The notes: generated by a model from the letters alone, not told the origin. 64,000 bases of DNA from an uncultured Candidatus Saccharibacteria bacterium (GCA_964436015.1 CAYTAR010000003.1:16678-80677), one strand, 5' to 3'. Shown: positions 987-55,276, counted from the stretch's first letter. Numbers and translations: made by a program.

Positions 987-1727
987 ATGAAAAAAACACA
1001 CAAGATTGGGTTGGTGGTACTACTTGGTATTGTTGTACTCCTTGTGTGGTACGGTATGAAGCAATCAGTTTCTGATATTGATGAAGAGGTTGATTTAATC
1101 ATAGAGTCAGAAGAAACCGCTGAAACAGATTTGGTCCCACAGACAAACAATAATTCACCATTGCGAGAGGTTGAAATTGTAGAAGAATCTCCACAGATTA
1201 ATTATGCATACTTATTTGAAAAGGGAAGTAGCGAGGAAAGTAATATTGTGGGGCATTTTGGAGAAGGGGCGTTTGGGTGGTATGTACCAAGTTGGCTTGT
1301 AGCAAACTGGGTTGATGTAACTCCTGAAGGAGGTCTGGGTCTTATTTTTGCACCAAAAGTTCGTCACGATAGTGAGCAGTTCTCAAATATAGTTATTGAA
1401 GTTGGGACAAGTACCGAAGCGTTTAATGCAATGACGCTCTATGATATGAATATTGCTAAAAGTGCACCTTCAGACATTGTTATTACGGAAGTGCTTTTGA
1501 ATAAGCATGGAGCGAGTGATCTGCAGATAACCATGGAAACTAATACGTTGATATATCATATAGAAAAAAAAGTTTCTAATGATGTCCTGGATACATACTA
1601 TATGGACGGGAATGGTAAGACATTGATCGTTTCATTTCGTGCTCGTGCTGATATTTTCCCTCAATTTTCAACTCGTATTCGCGACCTTGTTGGAGGTATT
1701 GGCGCGCTGGTTCCGCCACAGGGGTAA
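987..1727 (+). CDS. hypothetical membrane-anchored protein
   Basis: 246 aa. N-terminal hydrophobic helix (IGLVVLLGIVVLLVW) followed by an acidic linker. Confidence 0.5.
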   Translation: MKKTHKIGLVVLLGIVVLLVWYGMKQSVSDIDEEVDLIIESEETAETDLVPQTNNNSPLREVEIVEESPQINYAYLFEKGSSEESNIVGHFGEGAFGWYVPSWLVANWVDVTPEGGLGLIFAPKVRHDSEQFSNIVIEVGTSTEAFNAMTLYDMNIAKSAPSDIVITEVLLNKHGASDLQITMETNTLIYHIEKKVSNDVLDTYYMDGNGKTLIVSFRARADIFPQFSTRIRDLVGGIGALVPPQG

Positions 1728-1740
1728 AAAGAATTCTCCA

Positions 1741-1771
1741 AATCCTGCCGAGGTCGGACCTCGGCAGAAAT
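1741..1771. repeat. 33-bp near-perfect palindromic repeat, copy 1 (aatcCTGCCGAGGTCgGACCTCGGCAGaaatt)
   Basis: Perfect 11-1-11 palindrome. A second copy at 5291..5321 differs only at the central base. Confidence 0.8.
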
Positions 1772-1797
1772 TTGAATAATGCAGATAGAAAATCTTG

Positions 1798-1824
1798 TTG
1801 ACAAAGTAATATATTTTGTATAGT
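1798..1824 (+). promoter_or_regulatory. sigma-70-like promoter for the YcaO-SagB gene
   Basis: TTGACA at 1798-1803 and an extended -10 TGtTATAGT ending at 1824. AAGGAT ribosome-binding site 7 nt before the ATG at 1875. Confidence 0.55.
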
Positions 1825-1874
1825 GTCAAGATAAATAAACTAGTTCTTAAACAATATAAGCGAAAGGATAAATC

Positions 1875-4055
1875 ATGAACTTTGGAAGTATACCTGTTGT
1901 ATGGGCTTCTGTTTTTATTTCGAGCAGAAAGACCACTTTTAGCACTTTCAGCAAAGAAGTGGTGGTTGAAGTCCCTCGGGCTGTTATTGCTGCTCTATTG
2001 GAGGCCTGCAATGGAAGTAGGATCCTGAGCGAAGTAATTGATATTTTGTCCCAGGATTGGGACCGGACATCAATCGAAGGGCTTATCGAGGAGTTGTTCA
2101 AAAAGCAAGTGATTGTTGATGGAAAAACACTCGAAGGTGAGTTCTGGAAAAATGTTACGAATCCGATGAGGTTTCCAACAAATATCAGCGATAAGAATGT
2201 GGCGCGTCTGGTATTCCATGCTACAGAAAGGCACCGAAAAGAAAAACCTGAGAAGGTTTACAGACCTTCAAAAAGTGATTTCTCTGAGATTGTTAGTCGT
2301 CGCAAATCCGTCCGTATTTTTTCTGGAGAGACCGTCGATTTTCAAATTGTCATTGATCTGCTTTGGAGTGCGTATGGGGAATGTTTGACAACTGACGGGC
2401 GACCTCATCGCTCTGTACCATCTGCTGGAGCACTTTATCCTCTAATCATTCATGTTTGCCTATTTGAAAAAACAGGCGATCTGGATCCGGGGGTATATCG
2501 AGTGCTTTACGATCAAGAAGGTTCTGTCGGCTTTAAGTATGTTTCAACTGATACATTGAGGTTTGCCAGGTCTTTCTTGAATCCTGTTAGTATCCAGAAA
2601 GGAATTCACGGAGTCATTGTCATTAGCGGATCATTCGCTGTGTCAAATCAAAAATACGGTAACCGAAGTATGCTGTACGTTCCCTTGGAGGCTGGGCACT
2701 CTGCTCAGAACGTTCTCCTAGAAGCTACCCGTCAAGGTGTTGCAACGCTAGAAATTGGAGGTTTTGTGGACGAGCTTGTTGCTCAGTCTATTGAACTTCC
2801 TGATGACTATCAACCGCTTACTCTCGTTGCTTTTGGTAAAGAGTCTGAACAAGTTGATTTGAAAAAACCTTCGACCTTGCAAGTTGATTGGGCTATCCCA
2901 TCGGCCAAAGGGTATGCTCCTGGTTTTGCTATTGCATCGGCTCGCTTGTCAGAAAAACGAAGTTGGTCGCACGGCAGAGATCCTTCTCCTGAGTTGGCTT
3001 TTAAAAAAGCGATTTCTGAAACCAAGGAATGGACTTCTTGTGGATGTATTCCGGAGCTTACTTGTGCTACTTATCGTGAGTTAGATAATGTTATTGATCC
3101 TCGAGAAATCATTCGATTTCACAAGAGTCAGTACAGGATCAAGGGGTTTCCGTTTGCGCAGTTTAATAAGAATATAAGGTACAACTGGACAAAAGGATTT
3201 GACATGAGTGGAAATGAATTTTATATTCTTGCCGATCATGTTTATTTCCCATATTTTCCAGAAACGCCTTACTATTGTTTTTCAAACTCATCGGGATGCG
3301 CTGCGCACCCTGATAAGCAGATGGCAATTAAGACTGGAACTCTTGAATTAATCGAACGGGATGCATTTATCAACTCGTATTTCTGCAGACTTGATATGCC
3401 AGTAGTTTCAGAAGATACTCTACCGGATGATATTCAAAAGCGTATCTATGAGCTAAGGGAAGTCGGGTTTGAAGTGTGGGTTGTTGATCATTCGCTCGAT
3501 TTGGCACCTGTGGTATTTGTCATGGCTCAAAGTGAAAAGCATACTTTTACCACCTGTGCATCTTGCTCCAGTTTTGATGTTGAGCATGCTGTCAGTCATT
3601 CGCTCATGGAAGTAGAGGCATCCATTCTTCATCGTCTGCAACATGGCGTGTCCGATAAGATCCGTCCAGATAAGGTCATTTGGCCTAACGATCACGGTCG
3701 TCTTTACGGCCAAAAACAATACTTCCGCCGTGCGGATTTCTTGGTTGCAAGCCAAAGGTCTGTACCGTTCCAAGAGATAGGGGGCAACGCTCCTAAAACT
3801 TGGGACAATCTCCTTGGTTGTTTCGAGGGTAAGGGTTGGAAACATTTAGTTGTTCCTCTCGAGCTCTCTGATGACTATGGAGGAAACGGTGATCTCAGTA
3901 TTGTCAGAGTGATCGTTCCTGGCACCATACAGATGACCTTTGGCAATCGTCAGGAACCTGCTGGAATGAAGCGTCTGTATGAAATCGCCGAGAGGTTCGG
4001 ACGAGGTAAATTGACTTACAGTCAGCTAACTAAGTTCCCGCATCCTTTTGAGTGA
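1875..4055 (+). CDS. TOMM-type RiPP maturase: fused N-terminal RRE-like domain + SagB-type FMN dehydrogenase + azoline-forming YcaO cyclodehydratase
   Basis: 726 aa. Residues about 130-330 carry nitroreductase/SagB motifs (RKSVRIF, SAGALYP, LEAGHSAQN). Residues about 350-726 carry both YcaO signature blocks (GRDPSPELAFKKAISETKEW and SSGCAAHPDKQMAIKTGTLELIERDAF). The C terminus ends in the proline-rich FPHPFE motif typical of azoline-forming YcaOs. The first about 120 aa look like a PqqD-like leader-recognition (RRE) winged helix. Confidence 0.85.
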   Translation: MNFGSIPVVWASVFISSRKTTFSTFSKEVVVEVPRAVIAALLEACNGSRILSEVIDILSQDWDRTSIEGLIEELFKKQVIVDGKTLEGEFWKNVTNPMRFPTNISDKNVARLVFHATERHRKEKPEKVYRPSKSDFSEIVSRRKSVRIFSGETVDFQIVIDLLWSAYGECLTTDGRPHRSVPSAGALYPLIIHVCLFEKTGDLDPGVYRVLYDQEGSVGFKYVSTDTLRFARSFLNPVSIQKGIHGVIVISGSFAVSNQKYGNRSMLYVPLEAGHSAQNVLLEATRQGVATLEIGGFVDELVAQSIELPDDYQPLTLVAFGKESEQVDLKKPSTLQVDWAIPSAKGYAPGFAIASARLSEKRSWSHGRDPSPELAFKKAISETKEWTSCGCIPELTCATYRELDNVIDPREIIRFHKSQYRIKGFPFAQFNKNIRYNWTKGFDMSGNEFYILADHVYFPYFPETPYYCFSNSSGCAAHPDKQMAIKTGTLELIERDAFINSYFCRLDMPVVSEDTLPDDIQKRIYELREVGFEVWVVDHSLDLAPVVFVMAQSEKHTFTTCASCSSFDVEHAVSHSLMEVEASILHRLQHGVSDKIRPDKVIWPNDHGRLYGQKQYFRRADFLVASQRSVPFQEIGGNAPKTWDNLLGCFEGKGWKHLVVPLELSDDYGGNGDLSIVRVIVPGTIQMTFGNRQEPAGMKRLYEIAERFGRGKLTYSQLTKFPHPFE

Positions 4056-4060
4056 TACCA

Positions 4061-4099
4061 AGACGGAAGGCTAAAAACTTTCCGTCTTTTTTTTATTTT
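4061..4099 (+). terminator. Rho-independent terminator
   Basis: AGACGGAA / TTCCGTCT stem, 11-nt loop, then a T run of 12. Confidence 0.7.
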
Positions 4100-4113
4100 G
4101 CTAGTATAAAGTA

Positions 4114-4926
4114 ATGAATAAAGGTTTGTCACAAATTGAATTTTATTTTCCAAGCGGAGAATTTAATGACAAAAATGAAATAGGGGACTCAATCGTCTCT
4201 CTAATGAAAGAAAATGGAAGTATTGATTATTCTGGCTATGCAGATGTCGATTTGTTAAAGCAGGGTTTATTGGACCACATTGGAAACGGAAGTGTTGAGC
4301 AATATAAAGAAATCTCTGAGGAGCAGAGGTTGGAAATAGAAAAAACTATTTCAGAAACCATTGATAAGTGTAATGAAAAATTATCTGTTCCAACTAAGAA
4401 TTTTATTTTTGTTCATCCCTACCTTACCACCGAAGATGACAAGGTTTTTGACGGCGTAATGGCTGTGGCAGTTTACAGCTGTGTTTTTCATTTGTTTATA
4501 AATTTAGATCAATACTCAAAAAAATCTATCGAAAATACCGTTGCTCACGAACTGAATCATACAATCTACTACTACTATCATTATGATGATTTCAATAACT
4601 ATACACTTTTAGATGAAATATTATTAGAAGGTTTGGCAGAAAATTTTAGAGAACAGTATTTTGATGCTGAAGTTAGCAAGTGGGCTGGTGCATTAAATAA
4701 AGATGAGGCATTTAAAGTATTAAAGGAATCAGAAGGTATTCTTGAATCCAGAGACAAGAAAGTTATTGGTGAATTTCTGTTTGGAAACGATAGGTATAAA
4801 AGATGGACAGGCTACTCAGTTGGGTATTGGTTGGTTAAAGAATTTTTAAAAAATAATATCAATGTACCTTGGACTGAAATAATGAAGATGGATTCACAAA
4901 GATTTTTAGTAGCTGTTAACAAATAA
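4114..4926 (+). CDS. putative Zn-dependent metallopeptidase (HExxH...E), candidate leader peptidase
   Basis: 270 aa. AHELNH motif with a downstream EGLAE (gluzincin-like). Lies between the YcaO gene and the precursor peptide. Confidence 0.45.
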   Translation: MNKGLSQIEFYFPSGEFNDKNEIGDSIVSLMKENGSIDYSGYADVDLLKQGLLDHIGNGSVEQYKEISEEQRLEIEKTISETIDKCNEKLSVPTKNFIFVHPYLTTEDDKVFDGVMAVAVYSCVFHLFINLDQYSKKSIENTVAHELNHTIYYYYHYDDFNNYTLLDEILLEGLAENFREQYFDAEVSKWAGALNKDEAFKVLKESEGILESRDKKVIGEFLFGNDRYKRWTGYSVGYWLVKEFLKNNINVPWTEIMKMDSQRFLVAVNK

Positions 4927-4929
4927 AAA

Positions 4930-4960
4930 GACGTAGTGACAACTGACTGGTCACTACGTC
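4930..4960. terminator. bidirectional hairpin terminator between convergent genes
   Basis: GACGTAGTGAC...GTCACTACGTC perfect 11-bp inverted repeat, A-rich on the left. Confidence 0.6.
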
Positions 4961-4974
4961 CTATAAAGGAAGCA

Positions 4975-5100
4975 TCATTTGCTCCCGCACTTGCCGTTGC
5001 CGCCGCCACCAGAACTGCACTGTTCCTGACACACAACTGTGCCAGGAAGAGGCTTGTCTTTGGCAGTGACTTTCCAAGAGAACTTTTTAGGATTCTTCAT
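4975..5100 (-). CDS. candidate TOMM precursor peptide (41 aa): MKNPKKFSWKVTAKDKPLPGTVV-CQEQCSSGGGGNGKCGSK
   Basis: Minus-strand ATG at 5098-5100 preceded by AAGGAGA 7 nt upstream. Strong promoter upstream. The Cys/Ser/Gly-rich C-terminal core is typical of heterocyclised RiPP substrates. Stop at 4975-4977. Confidence 0.55.
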   Translation of the reverse strand: MKNPKKFSWKVTAKDKPLPGTVVCQEQCSSGGGGNGKCGSK

Positions 5101-5169
5101 GGTTGTCTCCTTTCCAATAGTTAAGGTTTCACCGTCAACTGTGTAAAGTAAATCTTTACACCTAATCAA

Positions 5170-5198
5170 AATATAAGCATTACAGGTCAGTATGTCAA
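5170..5198 (-). promoter_or_regulatory. sigma-70-like promoter for the precursor peptide
   Basis: Minus-strand TTGACA-17 nt-TATATT, about 70 nt upstream of the precursor ATG. Confidence 0.6.
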
Positions 5199-5290
5199 CA
5201 TTACGAAATGATTCAATATCTTGGAATTTACACAATAATTTCATAAGGTATGCTAATTGCATATACTAAAATAAAAGATTGGTTGTAATA

Positions 5291-5321
5291 ATCCTGCCGA
5301 GGTCCGACCTCGGCAGAAATT
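5291..5321. repeat. 33-bp palindromic repeat, copy 2 (aatcCTGCCGAGGTCcGACCTCGGCAGaaatt)
   Basis: Identical to 1741..1771 except for the central base. Lies upstream (minus-strand sense) of the precursor promoter. Confidence 0.8.
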
Positions 5322-5424
5322 AGCGTTGGTATTTCTAAGTAAATGAGAGATTGACTAATGCTTAATTTCATTATATTGTTTTCGTAGTTAAAATGCAGTA
5401 AATCAGATACGAAAGGAAAAATGA

Positions 5425-5697
5425 ATGAATGACACGACGTGGTACATTCACCCCGGTGGGTGCGTAACGACCAATCGCCTTCTCGCGGAACGTCTTCCGC
5501 AAGAAGATGCCTGTCCACAGAAGCTCTGTGCTGATGGTGTTCTGCGGGACCTTTGGAAGTGCGACCATGCGGTGGTTACTGAATTCACTCGCGCTCGGAA
5601 ACAACTCTCCCTTAATTTCAAAGTGTTTGTGCAGGAGGGGCAGGGGCCGGTGCGCCTGTGGAAGTTTGAAGAGAAGAAGCAAGCAACGAAGGTGTGA
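5425..5697 (+). CDS. small GC-rich Cys-containing hypothetical protein
   Basis: 90 aa. AAGGA ribosome-binding site, an upstream TTGACT-17 nt-TATTGT promoter (5351-5379) and a strong downstream terminator. GC content is clearly above its surroundings and several frames are open across it. Confidence 0.4.
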   Translation: MNDTTWYIHPGGCVTTNRLLAERLPQEDACPQKLCADGVLRDLWKCDHAVVTEFTRARKQLSLNFKVFVQEGQGPVRLWKFEEKKQATKV

Positions 5698-5714
5698 CAT
5701 TCGTTGTTTGAAAA

Positions 5715-5750
5715 CACAACACGCGGACCGTAGGTCCGCGTGTTTTTCTT
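5715..5750 (+). terminator. Rho-independent terminator
   Basis: ACGCGGACC..GGTCCGCGT stem followed by TTTTTCTT. Confidence 0.7.
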
Positions 5751-5821: not shown

Positions 5822-6796
5822 ATGAAAAAGAAGCATACACAGAAGAATATTGTTATTTACCAAGCAAAGAACGGAGCGATTGAACTTCGGGGTGATTTTG
5901 GGCATGAGACAGTATGGGCGACCCAGGCTCAAATAGCGAATGCTTTTGAGACAAACCGTTCTGTAGTCACAAAGCATATTAGAAACATTTTGAATGATAA
6001 GGAACTTGATGCGAAATCAGTATGTGCAAAATTTGCACATACTGCCGAGGACGGTAAAACCTACCAAGTTCAATTCTATAATCTCGATGTTATTTTGGCT
6101 GTGGGTTATAGAACTAATTCAAAACGTGCCATTGAATTTCGTAAATGGGCAACAAAGACGCTTCGGGAATATATTACAAAGGGCTACGTAATCAATCGTA
6201 AGCAGATTCAGAAGAATCATAAAGAATTTCTGAAAACCGTTGAATCAATTCAACAGTTGTTGCCGGAACATATCGCCCTTGATCCGAAATCAATACTTGA
6301 ACTTATCAAGGAATTTTCAAGTACATGGGTATCACTTGATGCATACGATAAGGAGTCTTTGAAGCCCGTTGGCGTTACGAAGAAATCAGTTGCAATTAGC
6401 GGTATTGAATTACGTGAGGTAATTGCTAACTTGAGAGCGGAATTGATGAGAAAGGGGGAGGCAGGAGAAATTTTTGCACAAGAAAGAAATGCGGGGAGTA
6501 TAGAGGGAATTATTGGAAACGTAATGCAGTCATTTGGGGATAAACCAGTATACGAAACAGTTGAGGAGAAAGCAGCACACCTTCTTTATTTTATGGTTAA
6601 AAATCATCCGTTTATTGATGGTAATAAGCGCTCCGGGGCGTTTGCTTTTGTCTGGTTCCTACGGAAACAGCGTGTAAAGGGAAGAAGTAACATTAACCCA
6701 AGCGCACTCACGGCACTGACACTTCTTATTGCTGAGAGTGATTCTAAAAAGATGGGGCAGATGGTTGCGTTAGTGACACAGATGTTGAAGAAGTAA
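5822..6796 (+). CDS. Fic/Doc family protein with RhuM-like N-terminal domain
   Basis: 324 aa. The N terminus (IVIYQAKNGAIELRGDFGHETVWATQAQIANAFETNRSVVTKHIRNI) resembles the RhuM virulence-protein family. The C terminus carries HPFIDGNKRSGA, matching the Fic/Doc HxFx(D/N)GNKR motif. Confidence 0.7.
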   Translation: MKKKHTQKNIVIYQAKNGAIELRGDFGHETVWATQAQIANAFETNRSVVTKHIRNILNDKELDAKSVCAKFAHTAEDGKTYQVQFYNLDVILAVGYRTNSKRAIEFRKWATKTLREYITKGYVINRKQIQKNHKEFLKTVESIQQLLPEHIALDPKSILELIKEFSSTWVSLDAYDKESLKPVGVTKKSVAISGIELREVIANLRAELMRKGEAGEIFAQERNAGSIEGIIGNVMQSFGDKPVYETVEEKAAHLLYFMVKNHPFIDGNKRSGAFAFVWFLRKQRVKGRSNINPSALTALTLLIAESDSKKMGQMVALVTQMLKK

Positions 6797-6811: not shown

Positions 6812-7084
6812 ATGGAAGAAAAAGACCTATTAGAGAAAATTGAGCGTATGGTACAGGAGATTCATGATAAGGCTGGTAATTATACACAACCAGTTCTCCG
6901 TAGATATCCTCTGTTGTTTACCTTTTTGGTTACCTTTGGCGTGGCTGCTGTTTTGTATGGTTTTGAGTTGTGGGCAAATAAAATAGCCCTCTTTAATGAC
7001 CACCCACTTGTTCTTATGTTGATTGGGGTACTAGTTCTTATATTTACCGGCACTCTCTATAAAACGCTAAGAAAGGTTGATTAG
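6812..7084 (+). CDS. small membrane protein (2 TM)
   Basis: 90 aa with two hydrophobic helices. Confidence 0.4.
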   Translation: MEEKDLLEKIERMVQEIHDKAGNYTQPVLRRYPLLFTFLVTFGVAAVLYGFELWANKIALFNDHPLVLMLIGVLVLIFTGTLYKTLRKVD

Positions 7085-7171: not shown

Positions 7172-7201
7172 TTGACCTCCATACCCCCTGGGGGGTATAC
7201 T
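7172..7201 (+). promoter_or_regulatory. cso operon promoter with a CsoR-type operator in the spacer
   Basis: TTGACC-18 nt-TATACT. The perfect GC-rich palindrome ATACCCCCTGGGGGGTAT (7181-7198) fills the spacer and resembles known CsoR operators. Confidence 0.6.
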
Positions 7202-7484: not shown

Positions 7485-9779
7485 ATGCACACAGAAAATT
7501 ATCGGGTTAAGGGAATGCACTGTGCCTCATGTTCTTCGGTAATTGAGAAAACGCTTAAGAAAGTTGATGGGGTGCATTCAGTACAGGTGAACTATGGTAC
7601 TGAGAAAGCAAAAGTTTCTTTTGACTCATCAAAAGTAAACCCCCATGACTTGTCAAAGCACACTGAACCCCTTGGGTACACGCTTGAAGCAGAAGCGAGT
7701 GCTCAGGAGATGAACATGACAGCGGATGAACATGCTGCGCACACCGGCGTGAATCAGACAAAAAAAGAGAAGTTGGCAGAAGTGGCTGATATGCGTACCA
7801 AAGCATTTACCGCACTCCCCATAGCGCTGTTCGCAGCGTTTGTGATGGGATGGGATATGTTGGCAGAGTATAGTATTGCACCAATGATGGGTGAGACGCT
7901 TAAGAATTTTTTCCACCACGTGCTTCCAATACTCGCAACATATGTTTTATTTGTGGTGGGTAAGCCATACTTGTGGGGAGTGTATCGATTTTTCCGTTTT
8001 GGTAAAGCAAATATGGATACGCTGATAGGTATCGGTACCACCGCTGCTTTTCTGTACAGTTTTGCGGTAAGCGCGTTTGAAGAAGTACTCCGGCCTTTTA
8101 TTAATGTGGACTACCAATATTACGACGTAACCATTGTAGTGATTGCATTCATTGCTCTGGGTAAATATTTAGAGGCGCGCTCAAAGGTCAAAACAGGGGA
8201 CGCTATTGAAAAATTGCTCACACTGCAAGCAAAGTCAGCTTTGGTTATTCGTGAAGGAAAGGAAGTTGAAATTTCTGTTAATGAAGTGGTGCGCGGGGAT
8301 TTGATTATCGTAAAGCCAGGTGGAAAGATTCCTATAGATGGAGTGATTACCGAAGGAGAGTCTTTTGTTGATGAGTCTATGGTTACGGGCGAGCCAATGC
8401 CAGTGCAGAAAAAGGTTGGCGATCCTGTTGTTTCTGGAACACTCAATACACATGGTTCATTTATCTGTCGAGCGGAAAAGGTTGGTTCAGAAACACTCCT
8501 TGCGCACATTATACATATGGTTGAGGAGGCCCAGGGGAGTAAAGCGCCGATACAGGCGCTCGCCGATAAAATTTCGGCAGTATTCGTTCCTGCTGTGTTG
8601 GTAATTGCGTTTCTTTCCCTTGGTACCTGGCTCATTGTTGGTTCACAGTATATAGGTTTTTCTCAAGCACTTTCGTTCGGTCTCGTATCATTTGTAGGAG
8701 TGCTCGTGATTGCGTGCCCGTGCGCACTTGGACTTGCGACACCAACTGCAATTATTGTCGGTGTAGGTAAAGGGGCACGGGAAGGGATACTTATTAAAGA
8801 TGCAGAAACACTTGAAAAACTTCATAAGGTGAATACGGTTGTAGTAGATAAGACGGGGACGATAACCAAGGGTAAGCCAACGCTCGTTGATATTGAGAAT
8901 ATATCAAGTGTGACTGATACCGATCTTGTGAGTATTCTCGCCACACTTGAACGGAAGTCAGAACATCCAATAGCACACGCAATCGTAGCGTACGCACAGG
9001 AGAAGAATGTTTTATTATCAGAAATCTCTGGGTTTGAAGGGCTGCAAGGTAAAGGGGTCACAGGTACTATTAAGGGAATAGAATATTTTGCAGGTAACGT
9101 AACTTTGGCGACCGATCTCGGGCTTTCGTTTGATACGCAGAAGCTACACGAATATACTTCTCAAGGGAAAACACCAATTTTACTCATGACAAGAGAGCGT
9201 GTTCTTGGATTATTTTCAGTGTCAGATGAAATAAAAGCCGAATCAAAACAAGCGGTCGCTGATCTACATAAGCACGGTATTAAAGTGGTAATGCTCACCG
9301 GGGATGACGAAAAGGCTGCGCAGTATATTGCAAAACTTGTTGGTATTGATGAAGTGATTGCGCATGTGTTACCGCAGGATAAACGTGCAAAGATTATAGA
9401 GCTTCAAACACAAGGTCGCGTTGTAGCTATGGCGGGGGACGGGGTAAACGATGCACCTGCTCTTGCACAGGCGGATGTGGGAATTGCGATGGGGACCGGA
9501 ACAGATGTGGCGATTGAATCTGCAGGGATTACTCTTTTGGGAGGCGATATCTCAAAACTGGTGAAGGCAATTAAACTCTCAAAGATAACCATGCGAGGGA
9601 TTAAACAAAATTTGTTTTGGGCATTCATATACAATGTTGTTGGTATTCCACTTGCAGCAGGCGTATTCTACCCACTGTTTGGATGGTTACTGAATCCAGT
9701 GTTTGCAGGTTTTGCAATGGCAATGTCTTCGGTATCGGTGGTATCAAACTCACTTCGTATAAAGGCTAAAAAATTATAA
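7485..9779 (+). CDS. copA: copper-translocating P1B-type ATPase
   Basis: 764 aa. N-terminal HMA domain (GMHCASC), CPC in a TM helix, [19 protein letters not shown]. Confidence 0.95.
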
Positions 9780-9783
9780 TCAT

Positions 9784-10791
9784 ATGAAAACATATACATT
9801 GTACGTATCAGGAACTCATTGTCCCTCATGTAAGATTTTTATTGAGGATACTTTGAACGAAGAATCTGGTATTGAGCAGACAACAGTTGACTTACAAAAG
9901 GAAACGGTCTCTTTTAACACTACGCTTGAAGAGAGTCCGCAGGTACTTGCTCATATGTTGACCGAGAAGATAAAGCACAATGGGTATGTGCTTTCAGTTG
10001 AGCAAAAAGCACCGGAGAGAGGTGATGGAGCGGTCATATGGCAAGCCTTGCCAGTTGGTCTCATATTTCTTGCTCTGTTCTTTTTCCTACAAAAATCAGG
10101 TATTCTCAATTTCGGACTTGGTGGACAAATGACATTGGTAACTAGTTTTATTATCGGTCTCGTTGCTTCTGTTTCAAGCTGTCTCGCACTCGTAGGAGGT
10201 CTCGTGCTCTCGCTTTCTGCAAAAGTATCACAAGATGAAATAAGTGACACCAGAACGTTCACTCTCTTCCATGTAGGGAGAATCGTGAGTTTTGCGGTAT
10301 TGGGAGGCGCACTTGGGGCGATAGGGGGTGCGATTGGTATCAATTTTACACTCACTGCAGTATTGGGGATTATTGCTTCTGTGGTGATGTTGTTGCTCGG
10401 GTTGAATCTTGTTGGAGTTTTTACGAAAAATACGGTGTTTATACCAGCAGGACTATTCAATTTTTTCAAGAGGATTGAACACACAACCTTCACTCCACTC
10501 ATTCTTGGATTCGCGACATTCTTTCTGCCTTGTGGCTTCACGCAGTCAATGCAAGTTGTTGCATTGAGTAGTGGATCTTTCTTCTCAGGAATGCTTATTA
10601 TGTTGACTTTCGCACTGGGGACACTTCCAATGCTCCTCTTGCTTTCTTTCGGTTCAGCATCTTTTGCTCATTCAAAGTATGCATCACTGTTCTTTAAGTC
10701 AGCGGGAGTGGTTGTGATAGGTCTTGGGCTGTTTTCACTCCTTGCTGGTCTTGCTGGTTTGGGAATTATCAGTCCGTTATTTAGTATATAA
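9784..10791 (+). CDS. HMA (CxxC) domain fused to a DsbD_2/TauE-like polytopic permease
   Basis: 335 aa. N-terminal SGTHCPSCK metal-binding fold, then about 7 TM helices with conserved Cys (SSCLA, LPCGF). Confidence 0.65.
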   Translation: MKTYTLYVSGTHCPSCKIFIEDTLNEESGIEQTTVDLQKETVSFNTTLEESPQVLAHMLTEKIKHNGYVLSVEQKAPERGDGAVIWQALPVGLIFLALFFFLQKSGILNFGLGGQMTLVTSFIIGLVASVSSCLALVGGLVLSLSAKVSQDEISDTRTFTLFHVGRIVSFAVLGGALGAIGGAIGINFTLTAVLGIIASVVMLLLGLNLVGVFTKNTVFIPAGLFNFFKRIEHTTFTPLILGFATFFLPCGFTQSMQVVALSSGSFFSGMLIMLTFALGTLPMLLLLSFGSASFAHSKYASLFFKSAGVVVIGLGLFSLLAGLAGLGIISPLFSI

Positions 10792-12630: not shown

Positions 12631-12646
12631 TTCTCTGTTGCACACT

Positions 12647-12690
12647 TCACTCCAAGGGGTCCCCTTGGAGTGAAGATGAGTTCGTGTTTT
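12647..12690 (+). terminator. hairpin terminator
   Basis: CACTCCAAGGGG/CCCCTTGGAGTG stem with a downstream T run. Confidence 0.55.
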
Positions 12691-13391: not shown

Positions 13392-13400
13392 CATTGTACA

Positions 13401-13427
13401 CCCCTCGCGTATGCGAGGGGTTTTTTA
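13401..13427 (+). terminator. Rho-independent terminator
   Basis: CCCCTCGC-GTAT-GCGAGGGG followed by TTTTTT. Confidence 0.8.
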
Positions 13428-13460
13428 TTGTGTTACGTAGGTACGTGGTATACTTTTTTT

Positions 13461-15170
13461 ATGGCAGAAAAACGACTGCGCTCAATCACTGAAATTGATT
13501 TTTCTGTTCGGGGTTCGGTGTATCCGTCTCCTGAAGATTGGCGCGACCATGTTATCTATTTTTTACTTGTTGACCGTTTTGATAATGGAAAGCGGTCGCC
13601 TATATATAATGGAGTACGTGCAACTGGTCAGATTGATCCTCGTAAGGGAGATATCATCCACGGTGGTACTATTAAAGGCATAAAGCGAAGACTTACGTAT
13701 TTAAAGAATTTAGGCATAACGACACTTTGGTTGAGTCCGATAATAAAAAATCGTGTTGACGGTAATTCAATTCATGGCTACGCGATACAGGATTTTCTTT
13801 CTGTTGACCCGCATTTTGGGACACTTGCGGATTTTAAAAAACTGGTGAGTAGTGCGCACGAGCTTGGTATTCGAATTGTTCTTGATATTGTGATCAATCA
13901 TACGGGAGATAACTGGGCGTACGAGAATGATTCTAAGCCTCTTTTTGATAAAAGTGGAACACGGTTTCCGTTTGGTTTCTGGAGATCAAAGAGTGAGCAA
14001 GAAGCATTTGGTCCTGACGATGCGGTTTGGCCGATTGAACTACAAAGTCCTGAATGTTATACCAGGCGAGGCGCGATTACTGACTGGAATGACGATGAGC
14101 AAGCGCGACGAGGTGATTTTTTTGGATTGAAGGACCTTGATTTGAGTAACCAGTCGGTACTTGAGACCATGATCGCAGTGTATAAATACTGGATTGTAGA
14201 GACTGATATTGATGGATACAGAATTGATACGGTGAAGCACATTGATACTGAATCTGCGGTTACTTTCTTCAATGCAATAAAGGAATTTGCTGAGAGTATT
14301 GGAAAAAGGAATTTTTTGCTTTTCGGAGAGATTGTTGCAGATGATTCGGTGATTGCGACATATGTCGGGTTGCAGAATCCAAATGGTAACCACCTCAAGG
14401 CGCTTGATGCCTCGCTTGATTTTCCTCTTTACTTCGTACTTGAAGACGTGTTAAAAGAGCGTTCCCCCATGTCGCTTCTTCGTGATCGGCATGATCGGGC
14501 ACTTTCAGTCTACCAGCATGCAAATGACGGAGGGTGTTTGATAACTTTTTTGGACAACCACGATCAAATTGCACGACCATTTTACCGTTTTCTCCATGGA
14601 GTGAACGATCCACTGCTTGCAGTGATTGGGGTTGGGTATTTACTTACCGCTCCTGGCATTCCCGCAGTCTACTACGGCACTGAACAGGGGTTTGATGGAG
14701 GAGGAGTGGGTCCGTACAGTGATAATTATATTCGTGAGTGTATGTTCGGTGGGGTATGGGGAGCATTCGGAACTACAGGAATGCATTTTTTTGATACGAA
14801 GAATTACATATACCGTATGATTGCAAAGATTGCGGGAATTCGTGCGAGAGAGGCGGCATTGCGGTACGGGCGGTGTTACTTCCGGGACGTATCGCTCGAC
14901 GGGAATGTATTTTGGTATCCGGAACGCGAAGCCGGCCTGTTTGCGTTTTCTCGCATGCATGACAATGATGAGATACTTGTCGTATTCAATTTTCACGAGC
15001 ACGTTGAGACGAACATGATTACACTTGATAAAGCAGTGACTCCTCCTGGAACGCTTATGGTTGACCTCCTTAATAAGAAGCATACCCACCTTACCTTTCT
15101 TCAAGGTGAGCGTTCGGTGATACAAGTAACACTACCTCCGCGGAGTATGGCAATATATAAACGCGTATAA
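13461..15170 (+). CDS. GH13 alpha-amylase family glycoside hydrolase
   Basis: About 570 aa. LWLSPII, GYRIDTVKHID, FGEIV and FLDNHDQ are GH13 catalytic-region motifs. Start taken at the first ATG; 13428 is a TTG. Confidence 0.85.
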   Translation: MAEKRLRSITEIDFSVRGSVYPSPEDWRDHVIYFLLVDRFDNGKRSPIYNGVRATGQIDPRKGDIIHGGTIKGIKRRLTYLKNLGITTLWLSPIIKNRVDGNSIHGYAIQDFLSVDPHFGTLADFKKLVSSAHELGIRIVLDIVINHTGDNWAYENDSKPLFDKSGTRFPFGFWRSKSEQEAFGPDDAVWPIELQSPECYTRRGAITDWNDDEQARRGDFFGLKDLDLSNQSVLETMIAVYKYWIVETDIDGYRIDTVKHIDTESAVTFFNAIKEFAESIGKRNFLLFGEIVADDSVIATYVGLQNPNGNHLKALDASLDFPLYFVLEDVLKERSPMSLLRDRHDRALSVYQHANDGGCLITFLDNHDQIARPFYRFLHGVNDPLLAVIGVGYLLTAPGIPAVYYGTEQGFDGGGVGPYSDNYIRECMFGGVWGAFGTTGMHFFDTKNYIYRMIAKIAGIRAREAALRYGRCYFRDVSLDGNVFWYPEREAGLFAFSRMHDNDEILVVFNFHEHVETNMITLDKAVTPPGTLMVDLLNKKHTHLTFLQGERSVIQVTLPPRSMAIYKRV

Positions 15171-24301: not shown

Positions 24302-24521
24302 AGGTAGTAACGTGGTCGAAAGTCTATTACGTCAGATCATGTTCGGCGGCATACTGTCTGCCGTTATACACGACACATGAGCAAATCCACGACGGGGGTT
24401 CTAGTATCCCTTACCTCCTAGATTTGTTAGGCGATAGATGGCCTGTGTTTGAGGCAACAGAACTGGCCCTACACGTTCAACTACACCACTTGTCGCACAG
24501 GGCGACAAGTGGTATTTTTTT
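24302..24521 (+). ncRNA. candidate structured ncRNA 1 (unclassified)
   Basis: Own promoter (TTGACA 24268-24273, extended -10 TGtTATGCT to 24295) and own terminator (CCACTTGTCGC...GCGACAAGTGG plus T8 at 24486-24521). Intergenic, with no convincing ORF. Confidence 0.4.
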
Positions 24522-24652
24522 GCCTAACTTTTTGCTCTGTCAAAAACACATTGTGTTTACAGTATAGTTATATTTTGAGCCATTGATTCCCCCAAGGTTT
24601 AACCTTGGGGGAATTAGCTTGACAGTAGTGTGGACTGTGGTATACTACTCAT

Positions 24653-33632: not shown

Positions 33633-33704
33633 GATTGCATGGTATTTTTGTAAGCTCTTTAAAAGAGTGTAGTAGCTCAGTTTAATAGAGAATATCTGCA
33701 CCAT

Positions 33705-33732
33705 CCTCTCTTACGATATATCGTAAGAGAGG
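33705..33732. terminator. bidirectional terminator (perfect 14-bp palindrome)
   Basis: CCTCTCTTACGATA|TATCGTAAGAGAGG between convergent genes. Confidence 0.65.
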
Positions 33733-33764
33733 AGTTTTAAGTTTAATGACAAAAGAAAGCTGTA

Positions 33765-54908: not shown

Positions 54909-54979
54909 CGGGCTGTAGTACAGTGGTAGTATTTGCCCATGGGGTGGGTAAGACCCGAGTTCAATTCTCGGCAGCCCGA
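54909..54979 (+). tRNA. tRNA-Pro (anticodon GGG by hand fold)
   Basis: Cloverleaf folded by hand. Acceptor CGGGCTG/CAGCCCG has the C1:G72 pair and A73 diagnostic of bacterial tRNA-Pro. Anticodon stem TGCCC/GGGTA with loop AT-GGG-GT. T-arm CCGAG-TTCAATT-CTCGG. CCA is not encoded. Confidence 0.7.
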
Positions 54980-55002
54980 CATGGTATCCTATACCAGTTT
55001 GG
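54963..55002 (+). repeat. direct repeat, copy 1 (tRNA-Pro 3' end plus 20 nt flank)
   Basis: The 40-bp sequence aattctcggcagcccgacatggtatcctataccagtttgg recurs exactly at 55277..55316. Its first 21 bp also recur at 55137..55157. Confidence 0.85.
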
Positions 55003-55136
55003 CCATACATGCACTTATGCATGTATGGCGAGAATTGAAAGGCGGAGCGATGTTTTTGTTTGACTGCTTTTGAGTCAAGGCAAAAACCGCGAGCCGGGGT
55101 CGCGCAATTTTTCCGTCAGGAAAAATATGTGTGACC

Positions 55137-55157
55137 AATTCTCGGCAGCCCGACATG
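55137..55157 (+). repeat. direct repeat, copy 2 (21 bp of the tRNA 3' end)
   Basis: Exact 21/21 match to 54963..54983. Confidence 0.85.
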
Positions 55158-55276
55158 AAATGAATTATATTCATTTCGTAGTTGCGAGAATGAAGGAGGG
55201 GGTCAGGGAACCTTCGGTTCCCCGTGCAGGAAGGCAGTGAGTCTACGAGCGTTGGAAAACCGTGGGTTTCCAAGGA

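Follow-up and report, generated by a model that had tools for sequence, protein, structure and literature searches.

A candidate REP-like palindromic repeat at the borders of a TOMM-type peptide cassette in a Patescibacteria genome

What does it signify when one copy of an almost invariant palindrome stands on each side of a small biosynthetic gene cluster, close to the promoters of that cluster? The question is raised by the stretch CAYTAR010000003.1:16678-80677 (64,000 nucleotides, referred to here at its full length as the window), in which two copies of such a palindrome bracket a compact 3.5-kb cassette for a ribosomally synthesised and post-translationally modified peptide (RiPP) of the TOMM (thiazole/oxazole-modified peptide) type, each transcription unit of which has its own promoter. 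A first-pass annotation of the window had offered three readings of the pair: an operator shared by both transcription units, the boundaries of a horizontally acquired cassette, or a hairpin resembling the repetitive extragenic palindromic (REP) elements of other bacteria. On balance we favour an answer that draws on the last two, namely that the copies represent a REP-like, terminator-shaped hairpin at both junctions between the host chromosome and an acquired TOMM cassette.

The repeat, AATCCTGCCGAGGTC[G/C]GACCTCGGCAGAAATT, is found at two positions and nowhere else in the 64 kb:

1741-1772: palindromic repeat, copy 1, with a perfect 23-bp core at 1745-1767 and G as the centre base
5290-5321: palindromic repeat, copy 2, with a perfect 23-bp core at 5294-5316 and C as the centre base

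Read directly, copy 1 is AATCCTGCCGAGGTCGGACCTCGGCAGAAATT and copy 2 is AATCCTGCCGAGGTCCGACCTCGGCAGAAATT; they are identical at 31 of 32 positions, the centre base being the sole difference, they are spaced 3549 nt apart, and they have asymmetric flanks in common, AATCC on one side and GAAATT on the other. The perfect dyad comprises 23 bp in both copies, made up of 11-base arms and a 1-base centre (11+1+11), and in copy 1 the symmetry stretches imperfectly to 19-nt arms (84%). The pair and its uniqueness across the window, as first annotated, are thereby confirmed, while the 33 bp originally given for a near-perfect palindrome exceed the perfect part. A search of the window with the 23-mer, allowing up to three mismatches, gave no third match, and 0 of 100 shuffles gave any match; the core GAGGTCNGACCTC with up to two mismatches has no copy in the window beyond the two, and non-self repeat pairs number only four in the 64 kb, this pair included. 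On either strand the palindrome folds into a hairpin of 10-12 bp with a 3-nt loop, with a dG of -19 to -24 kcal/mol and a z of -5 to -6. With a 23-bp dyad within a 32-nt repeat, it falls among the short stable palindromes (about 20-40 nt) that characterise REP elements, and both window copies are extragenic, as REP elements are. No Rfam family covers the palindromes, and no tmRNA (transfer-messenger RNA) or tRNA is present at the two junctions.

Beyond the window, the palindrome belongs to a family. A collection with one genome per species, from which the source genome is absent, was scanned with the 19-mer core GCCGAGGTCNGACCTCGGC and returned 64 genome loci, about 25 of them in metagenome-assembled genomes (MAGs) of low-GC Patescibacteria or Omnitrophota, compared with about 0.15 expected by estimate for that group if its share of the collection is taken as about 10 Gb. 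Several MAGs were matched on two to four separate contigs. A scan of metagenomes with a 21-mer added 25 contigs, all but one of which have 31-47% GC. Overall, the core GAGGTC-N-GACCTC inside GCCGAGGTC-N-GACCTCGGC occurs on about 50 low-GC contigs of Patescibacteria and Omnitrophota, with a family consensus of about AAAwTT-GCCGAGGTC-N-GACCTCGGC-AAwTTT, in which all four bases are about equally frequent at the centre. At three loci (L052, L077 and L097 in our numbering) the 23-bp core and an AAATTA flank, 29 nt in all, are as in copy 2 of the window, and these copies sit 5 nt after a uracil-DNA glycosylase gene. A phage origin of the palindrome was considered as well and rejected, as viral contigs gave two matches only, both of high GC and due to chance.

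Most family copies are intergenic, typically 5-60 nt past a stop codon. At 26 loci, extra copies with one to four mismatches were found within 8 kb, where about two chance near-matches are expected in all of the 580 kb examined, and these extra copies often form small irregular clusters with spacings of 23-527 nt. In the variant copies, 13 of the 20 two-sided changes are Watson-Crick compensatory, as against one third expected. The 128 flanking open reading frames (ORFs) match 148 Pfam families, among them RtcB, topoisomerase, ribosomal protein L20, SHMT (serine hydroxymethyltransferase) and acetate kinase; none of these families is enriched and none is a transposase, nor is there among them a Y1 transposase of the RAYT type (REP-associated tyrosine transposase), as judged from these flanking ORFs. 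No family locus elsewhere carries the TOMM cassette. Some members, such as L085 (AAAAAGCC-hairpin-GGCTTTTTTT) and L003, are canonical bidirectional terminators. At L098 (298-526), five copies of a second hairpin repeat (CTGGCAACGTCAAACGTTGCCAG), from an unrelated family, stand within 230 nt beside GAGGTC-N-GACCTC copies, and this mixture of two families resembles the mosaics known as bacterial interspersed mosaic elements (BIMEs).

The family shares several properties with the REP elements and BIMEs of Enterobacteria and Pseudomonas: they too are short (about 20-40 nt), GC-rich intergenic palindromes lying mostly just past stop codons, each genome has many copies, which often gather locally together with variants (here in the other genomes), their stems are maintained by compensatory changes, and they form stable hairpins in transcripts. 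REP elements stabilise the mRNA that precedes them and attenuate transcription, and both recombination and the insertion of insertion sequences (IS) are concentrated at them. The differences concern the host, which belongs to the Patescibacteria, the lack of sequence similarity to known REP elements, and the absence of both a conserved 5' GTAG-type head, which RAYT transposases recognise, and of a RAYT near any copy; many REP families, for their part, have no linked RAYT. Furthermore, one core is common to many divergent lineages here, whereas REP families are usually species-specific. Full-text searches of the literature found no description of the motif or of REP-like repeat families in Patescibacteria. 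In the Patescibacteria literature found, the palindrome family thus appears to be previously undescribed, and judged by its sequences it behaves as a REP/BIME-type repeat.

The segment between the two copies, together with the gene that precedes it, is organised as follows:

987-1727, plus strand: gene for a protein of 246 aa without a Pfam family, upstream of copy 1
1798-1826, plus strand: maturase promoter (TTGACA, 17 nt, TAGTGT; -35 box at 1798-1803), kept in all cassette relatives
1875-4055, plus strand: fusion of a nitroreductase (SagB-type dehydrogenase) and a YcaO cyclodehydratase, the TOMM maturase
4114-4926, plus strand: DUF2268 predicted zinc protease, always the second gene of the cassette
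4930-4960: hairpin shared by the convergent DUF2268 and precursor genes
4975-5100, minus strand: precursor peptide MKNPKKFSWKVTAKDKPLPGTVVCQEQCSSGGGGNGKCGSK, 41 aa, rich in Cys, Ser and Gly, conserved in relatives
5170-5198, minus strand: precursor promoter (TTGACA, 17 nt, TATATT; 11 of 12 matches), conserved in relatives

Copy 1 begins 13 nt past the stop codon of the 246-aa gene and is the sole hairpin from that stop to the maturase promoter; from the end of its core to the maturase -35 box at 1798-1803 there are 30 nt. Copy 2 sits between the minus-strand precursor promoter, whose -35 box (5198-5193, minus strand) is separated from the core by 95 nt, and a promoter of the plus strand at 5351-5379, and to its right there is no minus-strand gene for at least 10 kb. 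The promoter distances of about 30 nt for copy 1 and about 95 nt for copy 2 had been given correctly in the first annotation.

A perfect 11+1+11 dyad, present in only two copies in 64 kb and with one copy upstream of each of the two cassette promoters, has the appearance of a shared operator, and a dimeric palindrome-binding regulator seated on both copies would co-control the maturase operon and the precursor gene. The relatives of the cassette speak against such a role. Nine cassettes from eight other lineages were compared (L065, L108, L109, L110, L112-L115 and the truncated L107), with maturases 58-87% identical. The gene order is the same in all nine, the maturase and the DUF2268 protease are retained, and the precursor, both promoters and a hairpin in the 5' untranslated region (UTR) of the precursor are kept wherever the sequence covers them, yet neither the palindrome nor its core is present in any of the nine. 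Since the palindrome is absent from relatives in which both promoters are conserved, the conserved control region of the cluster excludes it. The geometry is also unfavourable to an operator, as the distances to the -35 boxes are unequal (30 versus 95 nt) and both copies lie clear of the promoters. No regulator gene was found within or beside the cassette: between 83 and 6796 Pfam detected no gene with a helix-turn-helix (HTH) or another kind of regulator domain, and PADLOC named no regulator among five genes scanned, including the one at 6812-7084. Elsewhere, the same palindrome adjoins unrelated housekeeping genes without functional coherence, and the compensatory changes in the stems of the family suggest selection on pairing rather than on a sequence read by a protein. 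As far as the sequences can tell, a dedicated regulator-binding site of the cluster is not supported, and the shared operator must be regarded as highly improbable.

The leader of the precursor gene shows a pattern of its own. Its 5' UTR hairpin reads GTGTAAAG/CTTTACAC in the window (about 5125-5150, minus strand; alignment columns about 338-365) and ATGCGGAG/CTTCGCAT in L108-L110, and this covariation suggests a conserved stem in the leader of the precursor mRNA.

The cassette itself is mobile and probably horizontally acquired, as follows from its changing neighbourhoods together with its atypical tetranucleotide usage. Its neighbourhood differs in every lineage, the neighbours including a copper ATPase with a Bsp6I restriction-modification system, ribosomal protein L19, transketolase, a sigma factor, MurE and a region resembling a diversity-generating retroelement (DGR), and in its tetranucleotide usage the segment between the palindromes is more atypical than any other stretch of 3.5 kb in the 64 kb (z about 3.2). 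In three lineages (L113, 7346-8307; L114, 9690-10181; L112, 10035-10181) the cassette has an rve integrase, a serine recombinase or a gene resembling TraG of type IV secretion systems (T4SS) at a distance of 1-4 kb, and the rve-type integrase near the cassette has flanking inverted repeats of 27 nt. In L065, the closest relative, homology runs from the maturase -35 box to just past the precursor -35 box, that is, it stops just inside both palindromes. The CopA and CsoR proteins encoded beside the cassette in L065 are only 40% and 59% identical to those of the window, and at identities this low the copper operon is not common to the two.

The first-pass annotation had proposed comparing related genomes for presence or absence of the segment; the comparison located the cassette elsewhere in different neighbourhoods and gave no cassette-free site. 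In this search, L100-L106 were found to share the first two genes and to diverge after DUF2200, without a palindrome, and among homologues of the 246-aa gene the best one (L116, 50% identity) was found without synteny or palindrome. The asymmetric flanks that the two copies have in common do not discriminate between insertion and import, and the L052 subfamily has the same right flank in another genome.

Repeats bracket the same cassette in three other lineages, and each of them differs from the palindrome:

L065, 9659-9819 and 13354-13515: direct repeat of 163 nt, 91%
L110, 4826-4903 and 8368-8445: direct repeat of 78 nt, 96%, with a third, partial copy at 10102-10137 after an HTH-Fic module
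L108, 1145-1498 and 4904-5257: inverted repeat of 354 nt, 100%, reaching both -35 boxes
L109, 1-220 and 3625-3844: inverted repeat of 220 nt, 97.7%, reaching both -35 boxes

At each of these four loci the bracketing repeat is the strongest repeat pair. Flanking repeats are lacking at L112, L113 and L115 and are only weak at L114, so that repeat bracketing as a universal trait of the cassette was rejected. The copies of the L065 direct repeat (9700-9910 and 13395-13560) combine a promoter-like TTGCTATACT with what by appearance is the common 5' part of a small RNA; they diverge after this common part, each ending in its own terminator-like hairpin, and they have no Rfam match at E<1. The ORFs within the L109 inverted repeat look non-coding.

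Small accessory modules that lack a recombinase of their own and lie between paired near-palindromic sites of about 28-32 bp have been described as dif modules (PMC6449649, PMC13141974), and the copies could accordingly be read as recombination sites of a recombinase-less module, like the pdif sites and dif modules of Acinetobacter plasmids. A host site-specific recombinase would then bind the arms, swap strands at the centre and move the 3.5-kb cassette among palindrome copies. Two near-identical sites of about 30 bp do stand around a small accessory cassette that encodes no recombinase and occurs in many contexts, and the centre bases G and C, read as the overlaps GTCGGAC and GTCCGAC, would make the sites inverted, as in dif modules. 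At L110, moreover, another repeat is present in three copies and marks off two modules in succession, the TOMM cassette and the HTH-Fic module. The element nevertheless bears no likeness to the architecture or consensus of XerC/XerD sites (11-6-11, an AT-rich centre and a conserved XerD arm), and it is chromosomal. No conserved site travels with the cassette, as the flanking repeats of its relatives differ or are absent, and family copies elsewhere mostly flank core housekeeping genes rather than accessory modules. The centre base is unconstrained in the family, which suits the loop of a hairpin more than it suits a crossover region, and there is no recombinase near the element in the window. 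We consider it quite unlikely that the copies are recombination sites.

A broader version of this idea would hold that Patescibacteria carry recombinase-less modules bounded by short lineage-specific repeats, of which GAGGTC-N-GACCTC would be one boundary, and that a host enzyme recombines these modules, or that RecA does so once DNA has been taken up. We rate its chances as low. If true, such modules would constitute a chromosomal analogue of dif modules, and the bracketing of the TOMM cassette in four of nine lineages, by a 32-nt palindrome, by direct repeats of 163 nt and 78 nt and by an inverted repeat of 220-354 nt, would be explained.

Several defined element types were tried and set aside. 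A dif/pdif Xer site (28 bp, 11-6-11, with a XerD arm like TTATGTTAAAT) is ruled out by the GC-rich 11+1+11 arrangement, which has neither an AT-rich 6-bp centre nor a XerD-arm consensus. An integron attC site, which is an imperfect palindrome of 57-141 nt with RYYYAAC...GTTRRRY ends and extrahelical bases, is ruled out by a perfect dyad of 23 bp without GTTRRRY or bulges, and an integron cassette, which is promoterless with attC at its 3' end, by the cassette's own promoters and convergent genes. Read as inverted arms of 28 nt, the copies match at 93%, and terminal inverted repeats of a transposon or a miniature inverted-repeat transposable element (MITE) were rejected because the sequences beyond these arms (TTCTCCA... 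and ...AGCGTTG) show no duplication and the relatives of the cargo lack these ends. In the window, GCCGAGGTC occurs only within the two palindromes, and TGCCGAGG occurs 4+4 times, half of these within the palindromes, compared with 0.6 expected per strand; at other family loci the counts of CCGAGG are near expectation. A pair of DNA uptake sequences (DUS/USS, the latter standing for uptake signal sequence) was rejected, the half-sites not being enriched. A CRISPR or other tandem array is ruled out by two copies 3549 nt apart and by the irregular clusters (23-527 nt) in other genomes.

The terminator-like shape of the hairpin lends itself to yet another explanation, in which the copies are two independent, selected bidirectional insulators and their sequence identity reflects the reuse of a common terminator-type hairpin, not insertion history. 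Copy 1 would stop read-through from the 246-aa gene and copy 2 would stop leftward transcripts, leaving a toxic peptide system on its own promoters only. The great stability of the hairpins would suit this role, as would the position of copy 1, with no other hairpin on the way from the upstream stop codon to the maturase promoter, and the window contains further long perfect hairpins after genes without T-runs. The family as a whole resembles intrinsic bidirectional terminators, which are GC-rich stem-loops with A-rich 5' and T-rich 3' flanks after stop codons: its consensus has such flanks just past stop codons, and some members carry full A/T tracts and are canonical bidirectional terminators (L085, L003). 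The window copies differ from these in having only AAATT(T/A) after the stem, with three T only, and a terminator scan calls neither of them. Copy 2 follows no gene and lies between divergent promoters with no minus-strand gene rightward for at least 10 kb. Ordinary terminators share no stem sequence between loci and genomes, and independent ones would not share 32 nt including asymmetric flanks; the other gene-end hairpins of the window are unique. The relatives of the cassette, finally, do without the palindrome. Taken together, we find two independent insulators rather unlikely, although less so than recombination sites.

Other long, perfect and unique palindromes with arms of 12-15 nt are found in intergenic positions of the window at 12645-12675, 24485-24513, 24586-24614, 33704-33733 and 55002-55029, most of them without a clear T-run, and this genome appears to favour long hairpins at gene ends in general.

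For the favoured reading, in which a REP-like hairpin stands at both junctions of an acquired cassette, the two copies may have to be explained differently. Copy 1 would be transcribed as the 3' end of the 246-aa gene and would form a very stable stem-loop there. By analogy with the REP elements of E. coli, this stem-loop could attenuate read-through into the maturase promoter and protect the 3' end of the mRNA, and copy 1 probably serves the 246-aa gene as its 3'-end hairpin as well. For copy 2, which is placed between divergent promoters, there is no gene whose transcription it could end, and its presence is therefore best explained by history rather than by function. We infer that copy 2 could have arisen in one of two ways: the cassette may have recombined into a gene-end hairpin that was already in place, so that a copy came to stand on either side, or it may have come with both flanking hairpins from a donor genome rich in the family. 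As direct repeats 3.5 kb apart, the copies could also drive loss of the cassette by recombination.

This reading must be taken with caution, since a number of findings weigh against it. No relative with an empty, cassette-free site was found, and the proposal of acquired-cassette boundaries draws on the varied neighbourhoods, the atypical composition and the end of L065 homology inside the palindromes. Neither a RAYT nor a recombinase emerged as a partner protein. Unlike a canonical intrinsic terminator, the hairpin has no T-run, its tails being AAATTTGA and AAATTAGC, and neither copy was called by a scan for GC-rich stem-loops directly followed by a T-run of at least 5 in 8, the same scan finding canonical terminators at 4060 and 5718. 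In the variant copies, 41 one-sided changes break the pairing, and the conservation of the stem is only moderate and compatible with decaying copies. Moreover, the 64 kb read of the source genome hold two copies, and the dispersed multi-copy family is that of other Patescibacteria genomes. The first-pass annotation had stated that dozens of copies at unrelated loci across the genome would show the element to be a generic one and not specific to the cluster; such dozens do exist, but in other genomes of the phylum, so that the REP-like interpretation finds its support across other Patescibacteria genomes, and the source genome contributes two copies in the 64 kb read.

To the right of copy 2, the cassette is followed by two further features:

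5351-5744, plus strand: segment of 52% GC with a promoter (5351-5379), an ORF of 90 codons (5425-5697) and a strong bidirectional terminator (5718-5744)
5822-6796: RhuM-Fic gene beside the cassette, matching the PADLOC candidate defence family PDC-S23 (E 4e-110)

The ORF at 5425-5697 is without a homologue at 90% identity and matches nothing in Pfam or PADLOC, and no Rfam family covers the GC-rich segment at 5.4-5.7 kb; its RNA fold has a z of only -2.6, and the segment may be either coding or RNA. Fic genes adjoin the cassette in L110 and L114 too. Inside the RhuM-Fic coding region, at 6018-6054, there is a perfect 27-bp palindrome (CAGTATGTGCAAAATTTGCACATACTG) that overlaps CTGCCGAGGACGG, which partly matches the arm of the repeat, probably by chance. 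A dyad at 7181-7198 (ATACCCCCTGGGGGGTAT) overlaps the predicted promoter at 7172-7201, at the start of the csoR-copA operon, and by appearance looks like a CsoR-type operator. Far from the cassette, in the region 54909-55316, the 3' end of tRNA-Pro (54963-55002) is exactly repeated at 55277-55316 (40 nt) and partly at 55136-55157, and these direct repeats resemble att sites and hint at the remains of an element that had integrated at the tRNA.

As to the host, the YcaO fusion has roughly 370 homologues, the close ones among its named relatives are annotated as Candidatus Paceibacterota, and the best named matches of the housekeeping GTPase TypA, at 72-76% identity, belong to Patescibacteria, Ryanbacteria, Paceibacterota and Yonathbacteria. 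Judged by these two proteins, the host is a Patescibacteria (Paceibacteria) MAG, and the Bacillus-like (Firmicute) RiPP context that was implicit in the first annotation is not upheld.

Palindromic repeats that border variable cassettes are also known from Neisseria, where dRS3/NIME repeats (neisserial intergenic mosaic elements), Correia elements and minimal mobile elements occur in competent bacteria with small genomes and the cassettes move by recombination of flanking DNA. The accessory cassette described here is similar in that it occurs in nine contexts and is bordered by repeats in four lineages. It differs in that there is no evidence here of conserved flanking genes with alternating cassettes, that the repeats vary by lineage and are direct or inverted, and that the palindrome has neither a phage integrase nor an IS110-type one linked to it. 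The genomes of Patescibacteria are tiny, and these bacteria are believed to rely on DNA that they take up, yet how they gain and lose accessory genes is little understood.

The locus holds a caution as well, as a perfect dyad upstream of two promoters mimics an operator, while the relatives show the dyad to lie outside the conserved control region. The recurrent bracketing of one cassette by unrelated repeats, direct or inverted, would, if it proves general, point to a mechanism of module exchange in Patescibacteria. A hairpin repeat that is shared by many lineages and stands at the borders of a mobile antimicrobial-peptide cassette offers a concrete handle on gene flux in these bacteria.

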